Origin: an uncultured Nitrososphaeraceae archaeon
GTDB taxonomy: Archaea > Thermoproteota > Nitrososphaeria > Nitrososphaerales > Nitrososphaeraceae
NCBI GenBank assembly: GCA_963779615.1
Contig: CAVZZA010000001.1
Span: 480,001-544,000, forward strand
Direction of reading: 5' to 3'
Length of the DNA stretch: 64,000 nucleotides
Shown here: positions 8,427 through 46,995 of the stretch, one piece after another
Numbering within the stretch: the first letter of the stretch is position 1
Layout: every line of letters starts with the position of its first letter
Made by a program: the position numbers and the translations under genes
Notes under the pieces: model-generated
Database searches by the model: none
What the model was told of the DNA's origin: nothing
Seen by the model: the letters and a program-made list of their open reading frames with translations, nothing else

Positions 8427-9012
8427 CTATAAGGATGACACACCGTCAAAGTTATCTATCTTTGTCCTCAATCCATCAATTTCCTTTTCAAGTTGCAGTT
8501 TCTTTGAGTGCAGATGCAAAATATGGTTATTGTACAGGTCCACCTGTTTACGCAAGTCCAAAAGGCGATTTTGGGTCTCCAAGAGTTCTGTGATTCCCTG
8601 TTTACTCAATCCCTCTTTTTTTATACGCCTATACAGATGCACAAGGAGTACAAAGTCTTCACCATTTAACTCATTGTAAATGTTTACCAGACCCCCCATT
8701 CTTGACAGCCGCAGGTAGTCGCCATGATAATCGAGAATGGCATCGGCATCTATATCCAGCTCAATTGCCACGTCTACAAGGGCCTTTTTTGTCTTTGAAC
8801 AACCTAAAGGCCTGGGCACAGGGGGACAAATTCTTAAGGCGCCTTTCTTTATCCTCTTCTTCAATAGTGACGTCATCACCGGTTACTCGATTCATTATTT
8901 CTCCAATGGCTCTAAATGATATGTGTACCTGTTTGGCTATTTCACGGGTGGTCCTGCCTTCATTGGCAAGTTTGACAACTAGTTCTTCCTTTTCACTCTT
9001 TTTTAAAATCAA
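8427..9012 (-). pseudogene. HTH + coiled-coil protein (Nitrososphaerales paralogous family) split by a 1-nt frameshift
   Basis: ORF 8761-9012 ([15 protein letters not shown]...QAFRLF) continues in ORF 8427-8879 (LVDVAIELD...) across an A6 run near 8785-8790; colinear with intact paralog 26259-26876. Confidence 0.75.
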
Positions 9013-9052
9013 ACCATCTATACATATAGCAATTAGTTTATATATAAGGCAA

Positions 9053-9418
9053 CCTGGTTCCCCTGGTTCCCCTGGTTCCCCTGGTTCCCCTGGTTCCCCT
9101 GGTTCCCCTGGTTCCCCTGGTTCCCCTGGTTCCCCTGGTTCCCCTGGTTCCCCTGGTTCCCCTGGTTCCCCTGGTTCCCCTGGTTCCCCTGGTTCCCCTG
9201 GTTCCCCTGGTTCCCCTGGTTCCCCTGGTTCCCCTGGTTCCCCTGGTTCCCCTGGTTCCCCTGGTTCCCCTGGTTCCCCTGGTTCCCCTGGTTCCCCTGG
9301 TTCCCCTGGTTCCCCTGGTTCCCCTGGTTCCCCTGGTTCCCCTGGTTCCCCTGGTTCCCCTGGTTCCCCTGGTTCCCCTGGTTCCCCTGGTTCCCCTGGT
9401 TCCCCTGGTTCCCCTGGT
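9053..9418. repeat. Perfect tandem repeat (CCTGGTTCC) x about 40.7
   Basis: Directly visible; 366 bp with a 9-bp period. Confidence 0.98.
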
Positions 9419-9726
9419 ATAAGCGGTCACAATATTCGTTGATAGGCCTTCTAAATTATCCTAGGAAAAAAAGGTGGGGTGAGGTGCTAGCGGTAGGGTA
9501 GAGGTAGAGAGGAGATTCAGTCCAAATTAAATTCTTTACTGTGAGGACCCTAACCACTTTTAATTCTACATTTTGAGGACAAGGAGGTAGTTTTGGACTT
9601 GGAGGAAAACCACGTAGGGGTGAATAGATCTGATTGTAGTCGTGGTATTAATTGCAGTATCAGAGAAATAGGTAATCAAGTTCTCCCACTGATTGAAAAG
9701 ATAGGACCTGATCTTATTGATGAATG

Positions 9727-9836
9727 TATTACCTGTTTTATTTCTGTAGAAAAAACCCAAATTAACTATTCTTTACAAATTTAAAAACCCTGTGTCAAAA
9801 CCCATGACTAGGATGGAGGGAATGGGATTTGAACCC
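9727..9836 (-). repeat. att site copy: about 85-bp arm plus 23-bp core identical to the tRNA-Val 3' end
   Basis: TGGAGGGAATGGGATTTGAACCC at 9814-9836 equals 38632-38654; the arm is repeated at 10431-10517. Confidence 0.9.
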
Positions 9837-9984: not shown

Positions 9985-10428
9985 CGAGGGTCTCATCATT
10001 CACAAAACAGGCCATAAGAAAGGAAAAAGGCATGACTATGACATCTATAAGAAGAATCATCCCGTAACTCCAAAAGAAGTGATAAATGTGTTTGACCTTG
10101 GCTAGCTTGGGGTTTGGAAAGACTATCCAGGGCAACTATCATCTTTACCATATAAAAAGAAGAAAGATCAAGGGCCATGTGCAGAAGAAAAGGATACAAC
10201 CAGAACCACTCCAGAAAAAGGGTAGTGATAGAGCACACCATTTGCAGGGTTGAAATAAGCACAGGATTATGGGCGATGTCTTCAGAAACAGGTTATGAAA
10301 TTACGACAAGGTATCTGAAATAGTATCAGGACTGGTAAACTACAGAGCATTGTAATCTTTTTAGATGGCTACTATCAGTCATTGCCATACTGATAGGACA
10401 TGCAGATTATAATTATGCAGGAGATCTA
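9985..10428 (+). pseudogene. IS5-family (DDE_Tnp_4/ISL2-like) transposase 3' remnant with probable terminal IR
   Basis: HDYDIYKKNHPVTPKEVINVFDLG*LG, RKRVVIEHTICR and VFRNRL*NYDKVSEIVSGLVNYR; ATGCAGGAGATCTA at 10415-10428 matches the reverse complement of 16009-16022 at 12/14. Confidence 0.8.
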
Positions 10429-10430
10429 TA

Positions 10431-10533
10431 TATTGACTGTTTTGTTTCTGTAGAAAAAATCCAAATTAACTATTCTTTACAAATTTAAAAACCCTGCGTA
10501 AAAACTCGTAAAGAGTTGAGGGAATGGGATTTG
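10431..10533 (-). repeat. Second, degenerate att copy (arm plus 16-bp core)
   Basis: Near-identical to 9727-9831; GAGGGAATGGGATTTG at 10518-10533. Confidence 0.85.
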
Positions 10534-10630
10534 TTTACATGTTAGGCAGTAATCTTTTAATAGGCTATAGTTGATTTTAATTGTCTTGCATTGATGCTAA
10601 TTGTTAATGAAATAATTCAAAAAAATAGAG

Positions 10631-25629: not shown

Positions 25630-26107
25630 TAATGGTATCGATTATTGGCAAAATCTCCATGGCCCATTTTAACCCGCTGTGACTTTGGGCTTTCTGATTA
25701 CAAAGCACATAACGAAAAGACAGTTACTCCTTTACATATCTGCAGATATAACGGGGGCGCTATTGGCAAACTTGTTTGTAAAATATGCCATAGGGAATGA
25801 GGCATTCCTTGGAGCCGATTCTCCAAACTATGCGTATCCTCTGCCTTTGATAATCGGGGTGGAGATGTTGGCTTCTGCCCTGCTGATGGCTGTGATATTG
25901 ATTGTTGTATATACAAGGGGCCTGAGAGGCTTTGGTGGAATAGTTATTTGTGCTGTGGTTGGCTTGGACATTTTCTTTTTGCCCTTTGTGTCAGGGGCAT
26001 CAATGAATTCTGCTCGTTCATGGGCCCCTGTCAGTGTCTGGCCAAATGGGAAACCTGTGGGTTTTACTCATAAGCCACCTTTGCTGGAACACCGCCAACA
26101 ATCGTAA
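25630..26107 (+). pseudogene. Aquaporin/MIP channel pseudogene
   Basis: ISMAHFNP broken by a 1-nt shift before VTLGF; second box SGASMNSARS; N-terminus missing, C-terminus out of frame. Confidence 0.8.
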
Positions 26108-27424: not shown

Positions 27425-27790
27425 ACTCCTCAATATTGGAATATGCTTTTTGGTTTGACGGCAGAACCAAACAAGGTATGGGCAAAAAACGCCGCACTGA
27501 TTGTTGTGGTTGCCTCAAACAAACATTTTGACATCAACGGAAAATACTCCATAATGCACCAGTTCGATACTAGGGCCACCTGGAAAAACTTGGCCTTGGA
27601 GACATCAGCAATGGGATTGGTGACATGGCATGCAGAGATTTGACTATGAAAGGAAAAGGGCAGACTTGAGGATTCCGGACAGCTTTGGTGTTATGGCCAC
27701 GATTGCGAAAGGAAAAGGGCAGACTTGAGGATTCCGGACAGCTTTGGTGTTATGGCCACGATTGCGAATGGAAAAGACGACCAAAGGAAT
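27425..27790 (+). pseudogene. Nitroreductase-family 3' fragment with frameshift and duplication
   Basis: NKVWAKNAA...FDTRATWKNLALE...GLV, then FDYE...LRIPDSFGVMATIA.G. Confidence 0.75.
27648..27776 (+). repeat. 59-bp tandem duplication
   Basis: Identical units start at 27648 and 27707; GAAWGGAAAAG microhomology at 27648, 27707 and 27766. Confidence 0.95.
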
Positions 27791-29999: not shown

Positions 30000-30364
30000 A
30001 AAGCAAATACTTTACAGACTCAAAAAGAAATATTGTAAAGGATATAGAATCATCAAGTTCTGAAAGAAGTTACCCATTAGGAAATCTTGGTGAAATTAAA
30101 AAATATATATTATTAGGCTTTAGTTGATTGAGGTCGAATAAGATAAAGAAAAAAGAAAAACACGTTATATGACTTGAACAACGTGAAACAATCAAATACT
30201 TAAAAAATGTTTTATTAAAGTTGGTTCCCATAGTACCCCTTCAATGATGGCTACAAAAAATTCAAAAATGAAAAACATGGGTATTTCATTCACAAAAAAA
30301 CTCCATATTTACAAAACCCAACAATAACGAATTGACGGTAGTTTGGACGGTTATTTGAGAACCG

Positions 30365-30955
30365 TCAATTTTTGCTATTGCACACGTGGTGCTTCATAAA
30401 GTGTATGTCTCCCCTTTGAGGACATTTGTCGCATTCAAAAGTGTCTGAATAACCAAGTCTGTGTATATGAGGATTAAACAACGACCCCTCGTCAACTTTA
30501 TTCAAGATTTCTGTACTATCCATCTTTCTTTGCAGTTTCCTTATCTTGATGACTCTGTGTCCTTCGCCATTTTTTTCACCAGTGATGATTTCGATACCCT
30601 TCTCCTTCAGGTTAGGCACGATTTCGTTTATCTTGAATGTCAGTTTGTTTGAGGCTTTGGGCCACAGGTTGCTTCGTTTTAGTTCGGGTTTTATTTGGTC
30701 TATTACATCGCCCAAGTCTTTGTGAAGCCTTGTGGGCGTTCCCTCCCAATGATAACTGTCTTCCTTTTCGCCAATAAAAAGAAGCAATGCCTCGGCAACG
30801 GGCGACGACTCTATCACCTCATCGTTTTGGTTGTCAAAGTTTTCATGGTATGCATTGATAAACTCAGTGTCTTTGTTTTCTAAACAGCGTGAAATGATTT
30901 CTCCTCAATCTGCAAAGTCGGCCATTCTCGGAGAACCTTTCAGTATTTTTTCCAT
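30365..30955 (-). pseudogene. 3' fragment of a plasmid/virus primase-helicase (Rep)-like gene
   Basis: SPRMADFAD*GEIISRCL (TGA at a usual Trp position), WEGTPTRL, WPKASNKL; C-terminal CDKC..GD..MKHHVC as in 32846-34741; 5' part absent. Confidence 0.7.
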
Positions 30956-31039
30956 ATAGTTACTTTTATTAGTATTAGAAATTTGACATGAATTAAATGT
31001 GTTATAACTTTTATGTACTAATCATGAATGAATGAATCA

Positions 31040-31933
31040 TTAAAACCATTTGGTCAAATCATTTGTTTTCCCAATTGTAACGTCGAATGCGTCATTCAAT
31101 AAGTTTTTATCAATTTTGTTAATCCTATTTTCCATTGCTGAAAAAACGTTGGAAGCCCCTCTACTCCTGCTGGCTAAGATTAAATCGTATCTCTGACCAT
31201 CTGTTTCTACCTTCGAGGAGAAAACATTGTATTTTTCATCTTTACCCTCACATTCTATTTTATTGCGATAAAGTGAAATTATATCATCCATGGTGTTAAA
31301 TTCTGTATTAATTCTTTCACCAAAAAATAATTCTAACTTTAATTCAGATTGTTTAGCATTTGTATTCCTGTATATCCCTTCACTATGTAGTGTCATGATT
31401 ATATCCACTGCCCCATAGTTAAGTAATAATTTCATTGATTTCCATTGAATGTCTAGCCCAAAAGGATCTAAAAAGACTAAAAATCCTTCTTTCTCTTTCG
31501 CAATTGTACCAAACAATTCATTAATTTTTTCATTTACGTCTTTTTTTTCTATAGATATGAGATTATTATGACCTAAGCTATGGCCATTAATTCTTTTTTG
31601 TATTAAATTGATGTATTTTTTAGAGATGTCTGAAAGAATGTATTTATCAAATCGATATTTGTTATATAGTGCTACTAATGATGAGCCTGGGAACCTGTAC
31701 TTATTATCTATGGTATACAACCCACTTCCACAGAAGGGGTCGACAAAAATAGGATTGTAACCATTTTTTCTATAAATTTTGATGCAGGGTTCGATATAAT
31801 AGTCTAATGCAATTAATTTTTTGATTGACCATGTGCCATGATTTGGTGTTGTTTCATCTTTATCTTCCCAGTTGCTTACATTAGAATAGAGGCTTTTTAT
31901 TCTGTCTTTGGTCCACGTATAAATATCAACCAA
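31040..31933 (-). CDS. tcmP: Three-Cys-motif partner protein TcmP (SAM-dependent methyltransferase-like fold)
   Basis: WSIKKLIALDYY, FVDPFCGSG, GSSLVAL, VFLDPFG..IQW; overlaps the DUF5131 gene by 8 nt. Confidence 0.85.
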   Translation of the reverse strand: MVDIYTWTKDRIKSLYSNVSNWEDKDETTPNHGTWSIKKLIALDYYIEPCIKIYRKNGYNPIFVDPFCGSGLYTIDNKYRFPGSSLVALYNKYRFDKYILSDISKKYINLIQKRINGHSLGHNNLISIEKKDVNEKINELFGTIAKEKEGFLVFLDPFGLDIQWKSMKLLLNYGAVDIIMTLHSEGIYRNTNAKQSELKLELFFGERINTEFNTMDDIISLYRNKIECEGKDEKYNVFSSKVETDGQRYDLILASRSRGASNVFSAMENRINKIDKNLLNDAFDVTIGKTNDLTKWF

Positions 31934-32687
31934 ATAATGTTAATTGATTATTCGCTGCCTTAATTTCAATACTCTGTTTAACTGGAAATCCATCCCATAT
32001 TTTCCCATCTAATAATCTTCCTTTTGATTTGGAAGTAAGTCCACCCCATTGCTTGAAAAAGAAAGGTGTATTAGTTGAAATGCATTGATTTCGTATTTCC
32101 CTAACCCATTCAGTCTCGCAAGGCCTATGATTGGATCCTGATTCGCCTCCGGCAATAACCCATTCTATATCATCAAGATTTAACAGTCCCATTGGACCGA
32201 TTAAAGGCTCTAAACTTAAAAAATGGACTTTGGCATCAATTGTTGTTAAATCGGAAATTCTGTTTTTAAAATATTGATTTTCTACGGATACTCCAATCCA
32301 AATATTGTCTGGAAATTTTCCATAAACCTTTCCGAATTCTTTAAGCCTTGTGCTTCTTTTAGTTAAAATTTGAAATTTATGCCATGTTGCCTTTTTGATG
32401 ACATCAAAAACCATTCTGATAAATCCAAAGGGTACATCTTGATGAAATAGATCAGACATGCTATTTACAAAAATCATTCTAGGTTCTTTTATTTTTAAAG
32501 GAAAATCAATCACATCTTCGTGTATTGTGAGATTAAATCCATTTGAATATTTTTTTGTTCCCATTTTTTGTAATCTGAGTGCAAATCGTTCGGCATAACA
32601 ATTTCTGCAACCTGGGGATACCTTATCACAACCTGTAATTACATTCCAAGTTGTATTTGTCCACTCAATTGCAGACTTATCCGCCAT
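31926..32687 (-). CDS. DUF5131 / phage Gp37-Gp68 family radical-SAM-like protein
   Basis: IEWT..TWN..TGCDKVSPGCRNCYAE (Cx6Cx2C), FVNSMSDLFH, QILTKR, EWVIAGGESG, FFFKQWGG. Confidence 0.93.
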   Translation of the reverse strand: MADKSAIEWTNTTWNVITGCDKVSPGCRNCYAERFALRLQKMGTKKYSNGFNLTIHEDVIDFPLKIKEPRMIFVNSMSDLFHQDVPFGFIRMVFDVIKKATWHKFQILTKRSTRLKEFGKVYGKFPDNIWIGVSVENQYFKNRISDLTTIDAKVHFLSLEPLIGPMGLLNLDDIEWVIAGGESGSNHRPCETEWVREIRNQCISTNTPFFFKQWGGLTSKSKGRLLDGKIWDGFPVKQSIEIKAANNQLTLFG

Positions 32688-32845
32688 GTTATTATAAATG
32701 GTAGGAACATAATAAAATTATAATGTTGTTTGTTGTCACACATTACATTTTAGATTCTTACTTCATAAAAATAACAGAAGTATGGTTGTTGAAATAATTA
32801 AATAATCTTAATTATGAAAAATAATATAAAAGATAAAACTTAACA

Positions 32846-34741
32846 TTATTTTCTCTTATTCATTTTGCAGATATGCTCTAACATATGCCATTTGTCTCCT
32901 GTTCCGTTACAATTAAGACAGGCCCATGTGTCTGAACCGGGCCATTTTCTGTAGAGTTGCTTTTCCTTGATTTTGGCTTCCACTTCATTTTCACGCTCTA
33001 ACACTTCTAACACTTCTAACGCTTTGGTAGGTCTTGCATCTTCACTCTCTGTAATATCCATCAATGAAATGTTATTGTTTTCGTCTATAACTTTACTATT
33101 TCCTTCATATTTTATAGTTTTTTGTTCTGAATTAGTTAGCCTACCGCTTTTTAAACCATTGTCATGAAAGCCATTTCCCTCAACACTCTTCCAAAAAGTG
33201 TTAAAAGTGTTAGAAGTGTTAGTTAATTTACCGGTATCCAATATTTCTATTCCCTTTACTGAGGAATAGTTGCCTTTGAGCTTTTGTAATGTGGTCCAAT
33301 TGAAGACAAGGGACCTTTTCTCTCCATTATGCATCTTACGAGCTCCAAACTTGTCCTCGCATATTCTGGTCACCAGTGTTTTTGATATAGTTCCGAATTC
33401 ATCCGTGTGAAAACATTGAGGTTTATAGGAGTCGGCATGTCCAGGAAGTAAACATATTATTTTCCACAAATCTTCATTTGGAACTACTATGTTTTCATCC
33501 TTTACCAGTTCTAATAGAACTGAGAAAAGGTACGAATCCAAAGAGTTTAATTTTTTGTTGTTCTTCTCGACAAGAAATTTGGATAAGGCCTTGACAATTT
33601 CATCCACAGTTTTTGTGTTTTTGAATAGCCTTAGAATGGGCTTGCAAAGCTGCTTGTCCCTGTTTCTGATTGAAAGGCGAATGTCGGATACTTGGTCATC
33701 GTAATGGATTATCCTATATACAAGCAAAAGCTTGCGCAAGTCATCTATTTCCCTGAATAATTTTATGTGTTTTTGGTCCCCTGCGTCATTTATTACTTCA
33801 GAAATGTCATATGAAGGGTTACCGGGAGAACATCTTACAGTAAATATTCTTTCTGCGAATCCCCTACCCTTGTAACCCGGTTGCTTCTCTGAGCTGAACG
33901 CCTTAAAGCAATATGTGTTGTATCTTTGTTGTCTTTTGCTTTTTGCCCCATTTGGAGTGTCATAAATTCTGGTGACCTTGGCTCCAGCAACATATCCTGC
34001 CTTGTATATCCTCATTTTATCTTCCTGTTCCTCAATGCTGTCTATTTCATCCTCAAGTATTATTCCCTGACCTTCTTCAAACTGCCCAAGGAAGTTGTAG
34101 ATGTTGGCAGGAGTAATGCTGGTATCAAATAAGGGTCTGTATCCCAATTGATGGAAAATTCTCAGAGCATTGCTTTTTCCTGTGTTGTTGTCTCCCACAA
34201 ACAAAAGGTAATGGGTCATGCCCATCTTGTCTTGAAAATATGTGAAAATGGTGTCTGCAGAGCAAAGAGTTAAAGACTCATCGTCATTGTCAAAACATTT
34301 TTCCCAAACGTTTTTTACTTTTGCAAACAGCCCATCCATTGTTTCTTTTTGGGCTCTTGTTACATACTTTTTGATCTCATCAGCGGATGAAAAGCTGTAC
34401 TCTTTGCTTAAATACAAGGACTTGCCTGGCGGAACTATAGTCAGGTTTTCCAACCTTATTATTTCAGACAGGATTGGCTCGCCATTTCTTATCTGCAGAT
34501 ACATTGGGAGGTCATTTACCAAAATGGATTCTGCAAGTGGCATGCCCTTGCTGTATTTGTAAAATGAATATTCTCTAGTATCTTTGTTTTCCTCTCTGTC
34601 TTCCTTTGTCGATTTCTTTGTTTTGGTATTTTTAGTAATGTTGTTGTTACCTCCTTTACTGCCGACCTGGATATTGTTTTCAGAATAACGGGAAGAGATA
34701 GGGGCATATCCTATCAAATCATCACTTATAGGTTCATCCAT
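32846..34741 (-). CDS. Putative replication protein (P-loop NTPase/helicase-like) with C-terminal Zn-binding motif
   Basis: Walker A GDNNTGKS, Walker B ILEDE, ERIF Arg-finger-like motif, C-terminal CLNC..GDKWHMLEHIC; sits in the integrase-RHH backbone. Confidence 0.7.
   Translation of the reverse strand: MDEPISDDLIGYAPISSRYSENNIQVGSKGGNNNITKNTKTKKSTKEDREENKDTREYSFYKYSKGMPLAESILVNDLPMYLQIRNGEPILSEIIRLENLTIVPPGKSLYLSKEYSFSSADEIKKYVTRAQKETMDGLFAKVKNVWEKCFDNDDESLTLCSADTIFTYFQDKMGMTHYLLFVGDNNTGKSNALRIFHQLGYRPLFDTSITPANIYNFLGQFEEGQGIILEDEIDSIEEQEDKMRIYKAGYVAGAKVTRIYDTPNGAKSKRQQRYNTYCFKAFSSEKQPGYKGRGFAERIFTVRCSPGNPSYDISEVINDAGDQKHIKLFREIDDLRKLLLVYRIIHYDDQVSDIRLSIRNRDKQLCKPILRLFKNTKTVDEIVKALSKFLVEKNNKKLNSLDSYLFSVLLELVKDENIVVPNEDLWKIICLLPGHADSYKPQCFHTDEFGTISKTLVTRICEDKFGARKMHNGEKRSLVFNWTTLQKLKGNYSSVKGIEILDTGKLTNTSNTFNTFWKSVEGNGFHDNGLKSGRLTNSEQKTIKYEGNSKVIDENNNISLMDITESEDARPTKALEVLEVLERENEVEAKIKEKQLYRKWPGSDTWACLNCNGTGDKWHMLEHICKMNKRK
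32998..33222. repeat. Two inverted arrays of 3 x 9-bp repeats inside the Rep-like gene (candidate origin)
   Basis: CTAACACTTCTAACACTTCTAACGCTTTGG at 32998-33027 versus CCAAAAAGTGTTAAAAGTGTTAGAAGTGTTAG at 33191-33222. Confidence 0.75.
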
Positions 34742-34750
34742 AACTATCCA

Positions 34751-35191
34751 CTATTCTATAAACCGCCACTTGTGGGAAACAAGCTCCCTTATTTCACTAA
34801 GCCGTGCTTTAAGCAGCACTTTGTCTTCATTTGCATAAAGGGATAAAATACGGGATTCAGCTTCTTTTGCTATTCGCGCAATAACGTCCACAATTACCCA
34901 ATTGAGTCTTTGATGTTTCTCTTCCGTGGACTTGCAGCATTTGGTGTAATTCCGGATGTGATCTATTGTTTTGACATCAAGATCTTTATAACTAATTTCA
35001 TAGAGAGTAATGGGCGATTTAATCCTAAAGTACCTGAATTTGTCTGCTAGTTGAAGGATATATTCATTGGATTTTGTATTTTTGTCATATCCGTTTTCCA
35101 TCAGATTGACAAATATATTGTCCACCAAATATCCAGGGGTCCAAATTTCATCAGCAGTGGATATATTATCAACAGAACCTATGGAGTTCAT
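34751..35191 (-). CDS. Hypothetical element backbone protein
   Basis: 146-aa ATG ORF ending 9 bp before the Rep-like start. Confidence 0.65.
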   Translation of the reverse strand: MNSIGSVDNISTADEIWTPGYLVDNIFVNLMENGYDKNTKSNEYILQLADKFRYFRIKSPITLYEISYKDLDVKTIDHIRNYTKCCKSTEEKHQRLNWVIVDVIARIAKEAESRILSLYANEDKVLLKARLSEIRELVSHKWRFIE

Positions 35192-37028: not shown

Positions 37029-38564
37029 TTATTTTATCATTTTCTCTAAGACCTCTGGTTTCACGTTAACCAAAGCGGGATTCTGCTGGATAAGTAAGAA
37101 TATCTTGGTCATACCACTCTTTAATGACTCTATATCGCTTTCCAGCCTGTCCATTTTTTGCTTATCTTTATTCCTTACTTCATTATATGAATCATAAGAT
37201 AATATCATTTTACATTTTGGGCAAAACATATTATCCTGTTTATTTGGCTCAAAACAATTTGGACATTGTTTTGATTTGAGAATGTTTTGTGATCCTGTTT
37301 CATTTTCTTTGATTACTCCTCTTACCTTGAGTATGGATCTTGATGATTCAGAACCAAAATAATGAATATATCTTTGGGGCATTTTGCTGGTTATAGACCA
37401 TCCTGCATGATTCCTAAGAATGTGTTCTTTGATGATTTTTGATTTTTCTGTCAAAGCCGAGTGGCGTATGATATACAAGTTCCATGGTTTAGTAATGAAA
37501 TTTTTTATATATGCTTTATCAACTTCAGGGACCTTTTTATCATCTGAAAGTTTACGAAAAAGGTTAAAATACTGATTCTTATACCTTTTTAATAATCCAT
37601 TAACTGATAGTTGATTTGATAATGTAAAATTATCGTTATTGTTACTGCCATAGTTTTTATCACTTAGAGAAACAAAAAGCCATGAATCGGGATTATTTCC
37701 ATTTGGATGATTTAATATCCATTCTTTAAGATAAGGAATGCTGTCTATTAGTGGAAGAGTCCTAGGTCCAGTTTTTCCATCTACTGTAACTTCTGCATAT
37801 TGTATTGAGTCAGAAGATACCTTAAATTTGATGTCCTTGATTTTTAGGCTTAAAAGTTCATGTGGCCTTGCTGATGTGTCACAGGCCATAGCATGGTAGC
37901 ATCTGTCTCTTGGATAAGGACAATATTTCAAGAATAAAGAATGTTCTTCCATGGTCCACATATCATCTGGTTTATATGGTGATTTTTCCTTTCTTGGGAG
38001 TTGTCTTATGCTTTTCATACAACCCGGAGTTTCTCTTTTTCTAATGTCTGGCTCATTACGATTGTATAACCATCTAAAGAATTTTAAAAATAACATCTGT
38101 CTTGAATTCCATGTTCCTATGCTCTTGTGAGTTGGATCTGCTATGGAGGATTCCCTGAGATTGTTGAGATAGTCCAGTATGTCCTCCTTTGTCATTTCAT
38201 AAAATGTTTTTTTGTGATGAAAATATCTGGATAGATGAACAAGTTTTTTTATTTTTGTTTCCTTAGTAGATTCCTTTATATTCAATTCATTTTGTTCTGC
38301 AACAATATAATCACATATATCTTTTAGATTGTTGGAATTAATTTGTAAAACTTCATATAATATTTTTGAAATATATGGTTTAAGATACTGTGTAATATGT
38401 TCAATTTTTCTTTTTAAATTTGCAACATCTTCTAAATTATTGGATGAGGATTTTTCAGTTGTTATGATGAAGATATCGGCATTTTCATTGAAGTCTTTTA
38501 CTTTGTTAGTTTTATTGTTATTGTTCAGAACTTCATTAATTGTAGCTGCATTTTCCTCTGTCAT
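37029..38564 (-). CDS. int: Tyrosine recombinase/integrase with C-terminal Zn ribbon
   Basis: DTSARPHELLSLKI (R), GKTG (K), YIIRHS, HAGW, MPQRY (Y); CPNC...CPKC; starts 67 bp past the tRNA 3' end. Confidence 0.93.
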   Translation of the reverse strand: MTEENAATINEVLNNNNKTNKVKDFNENADIFIITTEKSSSNNLEDVANLKRKIEHITQYLKPYISKILYEVLQINSNNLKDICDYIVAEQNELNIKESTKETKIKKLVHLSRYFHHKKTFYEMTKEDILDYLNNLRESSIADPTHKSIGTWNSRQMLFLKFFRWLYNRNEPDIRKRETPGCMKSIRQLPRKEKSPYKPDDMWTMEEHSLFLKYCPYPRDRCYHAMACDTSARPHELLSLKIKDIKFKVSSDSIQYAEVTVDGKTGPRTLPLIDSIPYLKEWILNHPNGNNPDSWLFVSLSDKNYGSNNNDNFTLSNQLSVNGLLKRYKNQYFNLFRKLSDDKKVPEVDKAYIKNFITKPWNLYIIRHSALTEKSKIIKEHILRNHAGWSITSKMPQRYIHYFGSESSRSILKVRGVIKENETGSQNILKSKQCPNCFEPNKQDNMFCPKCKMILSYDSYNEVRNKDKQKMDRLESDIESLKSGMTKIFLLIQQNPALVNVKPEVLEKMIK

Positions 38565-38631
38565 ATGTTTATTGTATTAAAAATCTTGTTTTTTTAAGAT
38601 AAAAGCATTCTGTATAAACCCATGAATGGAG

Positions 38632-38706
38632 TGGAGGGAATGGGATTTGAACCCATGACCACCTGCGTGTAAGGCAGGTATCCTAACCAGTCTAGACAAC
38701 CCCTCC
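38632..38706 (-). tRNA. tRNA-Val(TAC)
   Basis: GGAGGGG...CCTGC-CT-TAC-AC-GCAGG...GGTTCAAATCC...TCCCTCCA cloverleaf. Confidence 0.97.
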
Positions 38707-46900: not shown

Positions 46901-46995
46901 GGGGCTATCGTCTAGCTTGGTAGGATACCATCCACAATTTTGTGGGTATATGCCCGGGGCGCTGGCGGTCGAGGGTTCGAGTCCCTCTGGCCCCA
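46901..46995 (+). tRNA. tRNA-Pro(GGG) with a 21-nt non-canonical intron (46931-46951, position 29/30)
   Basis: Spliced form gives the arm CCAGC-CCGGGGC-GCTGG; BHB motif GG-ATAC-CA^T-CCACA...TGTGG-GTAT-AT^G-CC. Confidence 0.9.

Follow-up and report, generated by a model that had tools for sequence, protein, structure and literature searches.

We analyzed a 64,000-nucleotide stretch of DNA (the window) from an uncultured Nitrososphaeraceae archaeon (contig CAVZZA010000001.1 of assembly GCA_963779615.1, positions 480,001 to 544,000) and found that it carries an intact copy of a mobile two-gene module. The module consists of a gene for a DUF5131 (Gp37/Gp68) protein at positions 31926..32687 and a gene for a TcmP protein at positions 31040..31933, both on the minus strand. 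Carried by an archaeal integrated element, this copy is intact and typical of a kind that is already known. We propose that the two proteins form an S-adenosylmethionine (SAM)-dependent unit that is directed at DNA and serves in modification or in genetic conflict, and we give this proposal about an even chance of being correct.

The DUF5131 gene encodes 253 amino acids (aa) from an ATG start, and its product is a radical-SAM-type protein with three cysteines. The TcmP gene encodes 297 aa from a TTG start, and its product is modelled with a class I methyltransferase fold. DUF5131 precedes TcmP, and the frames share 8 nucleotides (31926-31933) in the list of open reading frames (ORFs). The TTG codon is the earliest start in the TcmP frame, and homologues align from residue 3, which supports this start. 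Furthermore, both proteins are full length relative to their homologues. The ORF list and the homologue lengths thus agree with a first-pass annotation of this DNA, made by a model from the nucleotide letters, which had described two intact, coupled genes with an 8-nt overlap. Its family calls stood as well when they were checked with hidden Markov models. DUF5131 matches Pfam PF07505 over profile positions 2-243 of 243 (E = 1.6e-92; 309.8 bits, cut-off 28.9), and TcmP matches NCBIfam TIGR04474 over positions 2-260 of 263 (E = 6.6e-32; 111.5 bits, cut-off 53). The motifs it had named can be read in the translations, namely C20-x6-C27-x2-C30 in DUF5131 and both D65-P-F-C-G-S-G71 and D156-P-F-G159 in TcmP. 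DUF5131 also matches phrog_2045, a family with no assigned function.

The cassette is AT-rich (GC fraction 0.322), as had been noted, but this is not distinctive given values of 0.334-0.346 for the host flanks; the whole element has a GC fraction of 0.373. An AT-rich spacer of 158 nt (32688..32845, minus strand) lies upstream of DUF5131 and presumably includes the promoter region. A search for operator-like inverted repeats upstream of the window DUF5131 gene returned only AT-rich pairs, as chance predicts. For positions 30300-34800, two soil-metagenome DNA runs with small shares were listed, and no RNA run.

The same annotation had ranked the pair as the best candidate in the window for an undescribed system, and here it erred. 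The pair corresponds to the PADLOC candidate PDC-M41, and NCBIfam names TcmP for this very partnership. TcmP matches the PADLOC model PDC-M41A (E = 4.8e-21) and DUF5131 matches PDC-M41B (E = 6.9e-106), where our assignment means adjacent genes that match the A and B models rather than the use of PADLOC's system rules and thresholds. The window DUF5131 additionally matches PDC-M30B, a model of the candidate PDC-M30 (A+B). Likewise, the adjacency and coupling of the two genes agree with the TIGR04474 definition. Nothing essential separates the window copy from PDC-M41 or TIGR04474; its particulars are the DUF5131-first order with the short overlap and the location on an archaeal integrated element.

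Locus surveys show that the pair is a self-contained mobile two-gene module. With the DUF5131 alignment as the query, we assembled the 80 genome loci of highest similarity, which represent many bacterial and archaeal phyla. TcmP lies within 1 kb of DUF5131 in 64 of them; each of the four possible orientations occurs, and the stop and start codons often overlap. TcmP is the first of two co-directional genes at 47 loci and DUF5131 is the first at 11 (the order in the window), with four further pairs being divergent and two convergent. One locus has TcmP farther away, and no TcmP was found at 15, some of which are cut by contig ends. No third conserved gene was found in these 80 loci, where the next cluster is common to only five, and no nuclease partner belonging to the module was found, only two genes being conserved across the set.

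Viral and plasmid records were surveyed as well. Among the best 80 IMG/VR loci by similarity to the query, 78 have a DUF5131 ORF, and TcmP is within 1 kb in 36 and absent in 42. We found DUF5131 in 435 of 72,556 plasmid records and in 180 of 50,697 phage records. A tblastn search of the phage records with the window TcmP gave no match, and the TcmP of Gordonia phage ThankyouJordi retrieves 13 phage records only. The TcmP phage counts are therefore underestimates. Overall, the DUF5131 search yielded more than 8000 clusters at E <= 1e-10 and the TcmP search yielded 892 representatives.

We also surveyed 301 Nitrososphaeria genomes, including the genome of the window and one unpublished genome (G231). 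TcmP is present in 38 of these genomes and DUF5131 in 56, and neither was found in the eight genomes of the same genus. A DUF5131 match lies within 3 kb of 38 of the 43 TcmP matches (one such pair is from G231), and most of these adjacent pairs are divergent with a gap of about 200 bp. Conversely, 38 of the 64 full-length DUF5131 matches have TcmP nearby. Sixteen loci without TcmP were rescanned with a TcmP profile of our own, which found the protein at none of the 16 and at all four positive controls. No recurrent partner family was found at these 16 loci, where the defence matches (SIR2, AbiEii, capP-like) are scattered. These surveys bear out the earlier statement that the two genes are coupled and recur as neighbours on phages and islands, and they add plasmids.

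The two proteins differ greatly in how fast they change. We compared 55 pairs (54 loci plus the window), leaving out TcmPs shorter than 250 aa, DUF5131 proteins shorter than 220 aa, and non-adjacent genes. In the 1485 comparisons, the DUF5131 proteins have a median pairwise identity of 61% and the TcmPs one of 20.5%, and the two identities are essentially uncorrelated (Spearman 0.04). Since the loci were picked by DUF5131 similarity, the DUF5131 identity is inflated, which counts against our proposal, but the contrast with TcmP is not. Loci whose DUF5131 proteins are 75-80% identical can carry TcmPs that are only 19-25% identical, and the window TcmP has a median identity of 19% (range 13.8-24.7%) with its counterparts at the compared loci. 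The same pattern of a conserved DUF5131 and a divergent TcmP is seen among related Gordonia phages. Therefore, the radical-SAM-type enzyme is held constant, and its partner is exchanged or diversified. This arrangement resembles Type I and Type III restriction-modification, which also join a conserved enzyme to a fast-diverging methyltransferase-type partner. In contrast to those systems, the module has no nuclease or helicase, and its conserved partner is of the radical-SAM type.

The window DUF5131 is 51-60% identical to homologues across phyla and domains. An alignment of 28 sequences has 67 invariant columns, including C20, C27, C30, C202, and G180-G-E-S-G184. A structural model of the protein (pLDDT 78, with a poorly defined cluster loop) is nearest to spore photoproduct lyase (4fhc; Z 11.4, rmsd 3.2 over 196 residues), and further radical-SAM enzymes follow at Z 8-10. 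Judged by their titles, the top 20 VIA structural matches are all solved radical-SAM enzymes (Z 8.6-11.4). Foldseek matches of the model are weak (best E = 1.9e-3), and a search of solved structures by sequence gave no match. The radicalSAM.org resource places DUF5131 in megacluster 5-2, adjoining spore photoproduct lyase in 5-3, as described in the parts of PMC9477430 that we consulted.

On the basis of this model, DUF5131 is predicted to fold as a radical-SAM partial TIM barrel, and from the fold and the cysteines we infer iron-sulfur and SAM chemistry. The likeness to spore photoproduct lyase does not extend to the sequence level, where there is no match and the aligned identity is 11%. The lyase has 340 aa and a CX3CX2C motif, whereas DUF5131 has 253 aa, the CX6CX2C motif, and no known lesion substrate. 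A distant homologue of DUF5131 is found in NCBIfam TIGR04471, “radical SAM mobile pair protein A” (E = 8.1e-19), which also comes from a mobile gene pair. However, DUF5131 scores 68 bits against a cut-off of 355 and thus is not a member of that family.

The TcmP model (pLDDT 95) has a class I methyltransferase fold. Its closest solved folds are a DUF519 protein (2oo3, Z 16.6), RlmJ (6qe5, Z 16.5), and Trm1 (3axt, Z 15.4; also Z 13.6). These matches exceed the generic methyltransferase plateau near Z 13, and Foldseek concurs. In 76 diverse TcmP sequences, the only invariant columns are K39, G71, and D156, which correspond in turn to the Lys of motif X, the Gly of motif I, and the Asp of motif IV; D65 and G69 are at least 90% conserved. 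Outside the SAM-binding and catalytic motifs, TcmP is without conservation. Further acidic residues are D132 and D102, the latter in a column that is D or E in the rows shown (entropy 1.0 bit). TcmP thus has the motif I (D/E-x-F-x-G-x-G; D65 to G71) and the acidic residue after strand 2 (D102) that are expected of exocyclic-amine (N6-A, N4-C, or N2-G) methyltransferases. The motif IV of these enzymes is (D/N/S)-P-P-(Y/F/W). In TcmP it reads D156-P-F-G, with an invariant Asp, and family-wide neither the second Pro nor the aromatic residue is retained.

Sequence comparisons of TcmP with characterized families gave marginal matches. The TcmP profile aligns its DPxG with the DPPY of an RsmD-like protein (2fhp) at a weak E value of 0.0068, and this is the sole match to a PDB sequence. 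The Pfam model for D12-class N6-adenine DNA methyltransferases scores 19.7 bits against TcmP, below its cut-off of 22. Membership of TcmP in the RlmJ/DUF519 family received no support at the sequence level, with no such Pfam match at E values up to 0.01 and no PDB sequence match.

RlmJ, which makes m6A2030 in 23S rRNA, is nevertheless instructive. Its K18 and D164 are essential, and its active site has been likened to those of DNA m6A methylases, according to the portion of PMC3814359 available to us. These two residues match K39 and D156 of TcmP in kind and approximate position. The fold and the invariant Lys, Gly, and Asp residues therefore make TcmP look like an active amino-methyltransferase, though its motif IV is atypical. 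RlmJ/DUF519 and Trm1 (tRNA m2,2G26) remain its best structural matches. However, the aligned identity is 14%, and motif IV of TcmP is DPFG rather than DPPY. Moreover, TcmP is mobile and hypervariable and is fused to or located near DNA enzymes, not ribosome or tRNA genes, which sets it apart from RlmJ and Trm1.

Fusion proteins provide additional evidence for a joint function. Of 694 DUF5131 proteins with lengths of 444-2000 aa, we examined the best 120. A DUF5131-TcmP fusion accounts for 84 of these (median about 560 aa, with a linker of about 2 residues), and the reverse order occurs once. Another 17 carry other additions, and the remaining 18 have an insertion of about 310 aa within DUF5131. 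The fused forms are predicted proteins, mostly from metagenome contigs, and many of their clusters have several members. Among the DUF5131 proteins with other partners are a fusion to HsdM_N and N6_Mtase (P0289), a fusion to Dam (P0346), and two proteins with a C-terminal GMT-wHTH domain (P0308 and P0327). TcmP is also found fused to a PolX thumb (P0137).

The insertion of about 310 aa is intein-like and lies between the second and third cysteines of DUF5131, directly before the third (P0288, P0295, P0296, P0299, P0305, P0310, and 12 more). The third Cys of CX6CX2C is hence the residue that immediately follows it. A precomputed Pfam list gives PF14528 for many of these 18 proteins and also PF14890 for one, which we take to be homing-endonuclease and intein-splicing domains, respectively. 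Its site at the third Cys shows that the functional core of the DUF5131 family is the Cys triad.

The genomic surroundings of the pair were assessed using the 110 nearest flanking ORFs at 60 loci with adjacent genes. In our judgement, 14 of these ORFs at 12 of the loci match models of defence genes, a count made without a matched background gene set. The matches are a reverse transcriptase of the DRT UG5 type, Type III Res and Mod, enzymes of Type IIG, two TIR proteins, an HmaA-like helicase, capP, AbiEii, an OLD/AriA-like ATPase, PDC-M24B, PDC-S05, and PDC-M44B. Toxin-antitoxin and mobile genes are added by Pfam, with ParE, MazE, PIN, HipA, PrlF, SocA, and TumE making toxin-antitoxin genes frequent neighbours. 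Two PDC-M30A matches (L046 and L080) are TcmP relatives. We discounted several other PADLOC matches as generic: a GlgB-like protein (L028), an IstB-like DrmD and an ABC-transporter mad3 (both L072), an oxidoreductase (L090), a methyltransferase mad2 (L051), and an SbcC/Rad50-like LmuB (L091).

In two unrelated bacteria (L050:1774-9365 and L082:41-7581), the pair has the gene for a Type III-like Res helicase on one side and that for a Type III Mod methylase on the other, all closely spaced and in the same direction, and the second of these operons also includes an OLD/AriA-like ATPase. The pair lies directly behind a DRT gene in L038 and behind a Type IIG gene in L074. PolX adjoins TcmP in L084, and L094 has a neighbouring Ada/MGMT gene. 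The ties to restriction-modification thus include both Type III-like operons and, for Type I, the DUF5131-HsdM fusion.

Viral contigs with and without TcmP differ in their neighbouring genes. Of the 36 paired loci, 16 have an integrase, a CI/LexA-like repressor, or some other regulator no more than two genes away, compared with 7 of 40 TcmP-less loci (Fisher p 0.013). Another DNA methyltransferase lies within two genes at 7 of 40 TcmP-less loci and at 1 of 36 paired loci (Fisher p 0.059). When TcmP is lacking, viral DUF5131 tends to sit among replication and recombination genes (RusA, RecT, helicase, primase). The pair of Gordonia phage ThankyouJordi has the integrase gene on one side and the immunity repressor gene on the other.

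In Sinorhizobium meliloti 2011, the pSymA region 1246602-1259369 (L120) carries hna, a defence gene that has been studied experimentally. TcmP lies immediately behind hna, and after it come a 415-aa ORF and, 1.3 kb from TcmP, a DUF5131 gene in convergent orientation. As reported in the sections of PMC12445080 that we saw, this TcmP is co-upregulated with hna. The PLSDB gene table lists no genes across this stretch.

We searched 170 bp upstream of the pair at the 60 loci (10,797 bp in total) for LexA-box-like motifs. GTTC-N7-GTTC occurs three times against 0.33 expected, each time among the six alphaproteobacterial loci. GAAC-N4-GTTC occurs twice against 0.17 expected, and one of these is the full CGAACATATGTTCG in an Actinomycetota locus. 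The motifs include those at L048:6967, L080:1855, L090:6560, and L093:6941 (three alphaproteobacterial and one actinobacterial). Three control palindromes together gave one match against 0.63 expected, and the gammaproteobacterial box CTGT-N8-ACAG was not found upstream of the pair at any of the 60 loci.

These observations suggest that DNA is the target. The fusion partners HsdM, Dam, PolX, and wHTH and the lyase-like fold of DUF5131 point this way, as do the other DNA methylases that stand in where TcmP is missing, the occurrence of the pair within restriction or defence operons and within the immunity regions of prophages, and the host-type LexA boxes upstream of it. The fusions, the lyase-like fold, the stand-in methylases, and the placement also point to a unit that consists of a methyltransferase-type module and a radical-SAM-type enzyme. 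In the mechanism that we propose, DUF5131 would be a [4Fe-4S]/SAM radical enzyme with a partial TIM barrel and the CX6CX2C cysteines. TcmP would be a SAM-dependent exocyclic-amine methyltransferase of the RlmJ/Dam kind, with adenine N6 as the likeliest target and guanine N2 as another possible one. The two proteins would act jointly on DNA, either as a complex or in consecutive steps on one nucleotide.

The most likely division of labour is that the fast-diverging, swappable TcmP would recognise the target, flip the base, and probably methylate it, and that the very conserved DUF5131 would carry out an invariant radical step, acting either on that base or on unmarked DNA. The module could then serve the element or its host in conflict, through exclusion of or defence against viruses and other elements or through the marking of its own DNA. 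We infer the DNA substrate, the order of steps, and the biological role from the combined evidence, which does not decide whether the pair marks DNA protectively, makes a new hypermodified base, damages unmarked DNA, or repairs a lesion. A bolder version, which we hold only tentatively, makes DUF5131 the core of a new radical chemistry on DNA that is guided to its site by TcmP, HsdM-like, or Dam-like modules, exchangeable units of the adenine-methyltransferase type, and that turns the targeted or methylated base into a new hypermodified one or damages unmarked DNA. If true, such damage by DUF5131 would represent a nuclease-free restriction principle common to archaea, bacteria, and viruses.

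Several observations weigh against our proposal. The Cys spacing of DUF5131 is CX6CX2C rather than the canonical radical-SAM CX3CX2C. Motif IV of TcmP varies across the family (DPEG, DPYG, DNEG, and others), and methyl transfer is therefore not assured. The solved folds nearest to TcmP are RNA methyltransferases, not DNA methyltransferases. TcmP is missing near 26 of the 64 full-length DUF5131 matches in Nitrososphaeria and at the 42 viral loci noted above, and DUF5131 can therefore work without TcmP. Some of the fusions may be gene-calling or frameshift artefacts. Besides the missing background for the flank counts, many of the flanking ORFs are ordinary housekeeping or metabolic genes. The PDC systems were predicted from their embedding in known defence systems, and their authors call them untested in the text available to us (Payne et al., bioRxiv 10.1101/2024.01.29.577857). 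In line with the first-pass annotation, we found no demonstrated function for either family: the main-text literature that we searched (supplements aside) holds annotations and listings but no functional study of or experiment on DUF5131 or TcmP. Finally, hna alone restores complete phage resistance in S. meliloti, according to the same part of PMC12445080. The pair therefore added nothing detectable there, which shows that a defence phenotype is not a given.

The earlier inference of a base-modification or anti-virus system holds in that nucleic-acid modification or defence is the best-supported class of explanation, but it must now face a role in DNA damage as a live rival. If the pair serves in repair or damage tolerance, TcmP would find and flip a lesion that DUF5131 would reverse or process by radical chemistry in the manner of spore photoproduct lyase, and the pair would be a fitness gene of mobile elements. 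We consider this unlikely, yet the LexA boxes and the PolX links keep it alive. The closest fold to DUF5131 is spore photoproduct lyase, from the same radicalSAM.org megacluster, and the company of TcmP-less viral DUF5131 genes and the Ada/MGMT neighbour in L094 fit as well. A partner of about 20% identity that is swapped between near-identical DUF5131 genes is not what one would predict for a repair enzyme. The sporadic, mobile spread (38 of 301 genomes, none of eight congeners) and the location inside restriction or defence operons also count against repair. LexA boxes were seen at just 5 of the 60 loci, and prophage and toxin genes, too, are commonly under SOS control. Furthermore, archaea lack LexA, so the boxes say nothing about the window copy.

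The fold of TcmP instead raises the prospect of RNA as the substrate. TcmP might methylate an rRNA or tRNA base that DUF5131 then elaborates, possibly for the escape from or the imposition of tRNA- or rRNA-directed attack during infection. Trm5 followed by TYW1 is a precedent for a methyltransferase step that precedes a radical-SAM step. Beyond the RlmJ and Trm1 folds and the RsmD-like profile match, two phage annotations label DUF5131 an “RNA methyltransferase.” We nonetheless regard this explanation as improbable. The domains fused to the two proteins (HsdM, Dam, wHTH, PolX) act on DNA or bind it, and DUF5131 is nearest to a DNA enzyme (Z 11.4), above TYW1 (Z 8.2) and the Cfr and MiaB types (Z 7.7). 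Even RlmJ has an active site that its authors describe as DNA-m6A-methylase-like in what we saw of PMC3814359, and a universal RNA target would leave the extreme divergence of TcmP unexplained. Slightly more improbable is a selfish addiction unit, akin to restriction-modification or toxin-antitoxin systems, in which DUF5131 would damage nucleic acid that lacks the TcmP mark, loss of the cassette would be punished, and any benefit to the host would be secondary. A compact two-gene cassette that moves alone, the divergent Nitrososphaeria pairs with their gap of about 200 bp, the frequent toxin-antitoxin neighbours, and the decayed TcmP fragments beside DUF5131 in two genomes (G100 and G139) are all consistent with addiction. 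However, the persistence of DUF5131 alone in many genomes and phages is hard to square with an unguarded toxin, and a single-protein fusion is unusual for a toxin and its antidote. We think it very improbable that the window copy is inert cargo of a decaying element, its two open frames having lost their expression or function. The element does hold a fragment of a MIP gene and a 59-bp tandem duplication, and the genome has a truncated second DUF5131, 83% identical over 100 aa. Against such decay, both frames of the window copy are full length, its proteins keep all invariant columns of both alignments, and its translationally coupled arrangement is preserved.

The cassette is located on an integrated mobile element. 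A tRNA-Val (TAC) gene at positions 38631..38706 (minus strand) was predicted by ARAGORN and matches the Rfam tRNA model with 61 bits, and its 3' end forms the right attachment (att) site. The adjoining gene at 37029..38564 (minus strand) encodes a tyrosine integrase, which matches the Pfam models Phage_integrase (27.6 bits, cut-off 27.1) and Phage_int_SAM_4. The left att copy, a repeat of the tRNA-Val 3' end, lies at 9814..9836, and a third, partial copy is located at about 10517-10535. The direct repeats 9782-9836 and 38600-38654 are 82% identical, and a three-way alignment of the att copies has the invariant core GAGGGAATGGGATTTG. The tRNA-Val gene, the adjoining integrase, and the repeated tRNA 3' end therefore identify the cassette as cargo of an integrated element, which spans from about 9.8 to 38.65 kb (about 28.8 kb). 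The three copies of the tRNA-Val 3' end suggest two successive or tandem integrations at one tRNA, and the element possibly includes a small tandem remnant. The stretches 9719-9801 and 10423-10505, which lie upstream of two of these copies, are 89% identical.

Other cargo of the element includes transporters, plastocyanin-type proteins, and a molybdopterin oxidoreductase, a make-up that resembles the “cryptic integrated elements” of Thaumarchaeota as they are described in the part of PMC6563490 available to us. A 631-aa ORF directly upstream of DUF5131 (32846..34741, minus strand) has the P-loop GDNNTGKS and a C-terminal Cys/His motif. It had been annotated as Rep-like, which is not established by its P-loop matches, all sub-threshold (AAA_21, E = 0.007; AriA, 2.8e-4); it is a possible replication protein of the element. 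No relatives of this ORF were found adjoining the pair at the 35 Nitrososphaeria loci searched. The downstream gene that had been taken for a second Rep without its 5' part is a 150-aa ORF. We did not adopt that assignment, which rests on a single C-terminal Cys/His motif of 23 residues shared with the 631-aa ORF (10/23 identical, E = 0.001).

The decay claimed for much of the neighbouring cargo was seen in one gene, a MIP (aquaporin) fragment of 142 aa at 25679..26107 (plus strand) that covers profile positions 74-196 of 222 and looks truncated; no further decayed gene was shown. A perfect 59-bp tandem duplication (27648-27765) lies inside the element among short overlapping ORFs and may have disrupted a gene. 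The truncated second DUF5131 gene (G000:C1:6330-6614, locus L002) is located about 0.5 Mb from the window copy and covers profile positions 3-101, and no TcmP was detected beside it. This truncated copy shows that cassettes of this type are gained and lost in the lineage.

Two features beyond the element were also recorded. Just outside the left att copy, an ORF at 8702-9442 (plus strand) consists largely of a repeat of 9 bp (3 residues), present as 41 perfect, in-register copies (repeats 8963-9500), and matches the collagen triple-helix repeat (E = 1.1e-22). At 46901-46995 (plus strand), ARAGORN predicts a 95-nt tRNA-like gene with a 4-base anticodon call (attt), which may be an intron-containing archaeal tRNA.

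The archaeal copy adds little by itself, and although it is intact, it is no easier to test than its bacterial counterparts. Regardless, it shows that the module circulates on the integrated elements of ammonia-oxidising archaea. The DUF5131-TcmP pair is among the more widespread mobile two-gene modules that are without an assigned function, and its two enzymes both use SAM, with very different chemistries. Learning how the pair acts on nucleic acid could reveal a new DNA modification, a new principle of restriction or repair, and a new radical-SAM reaction.

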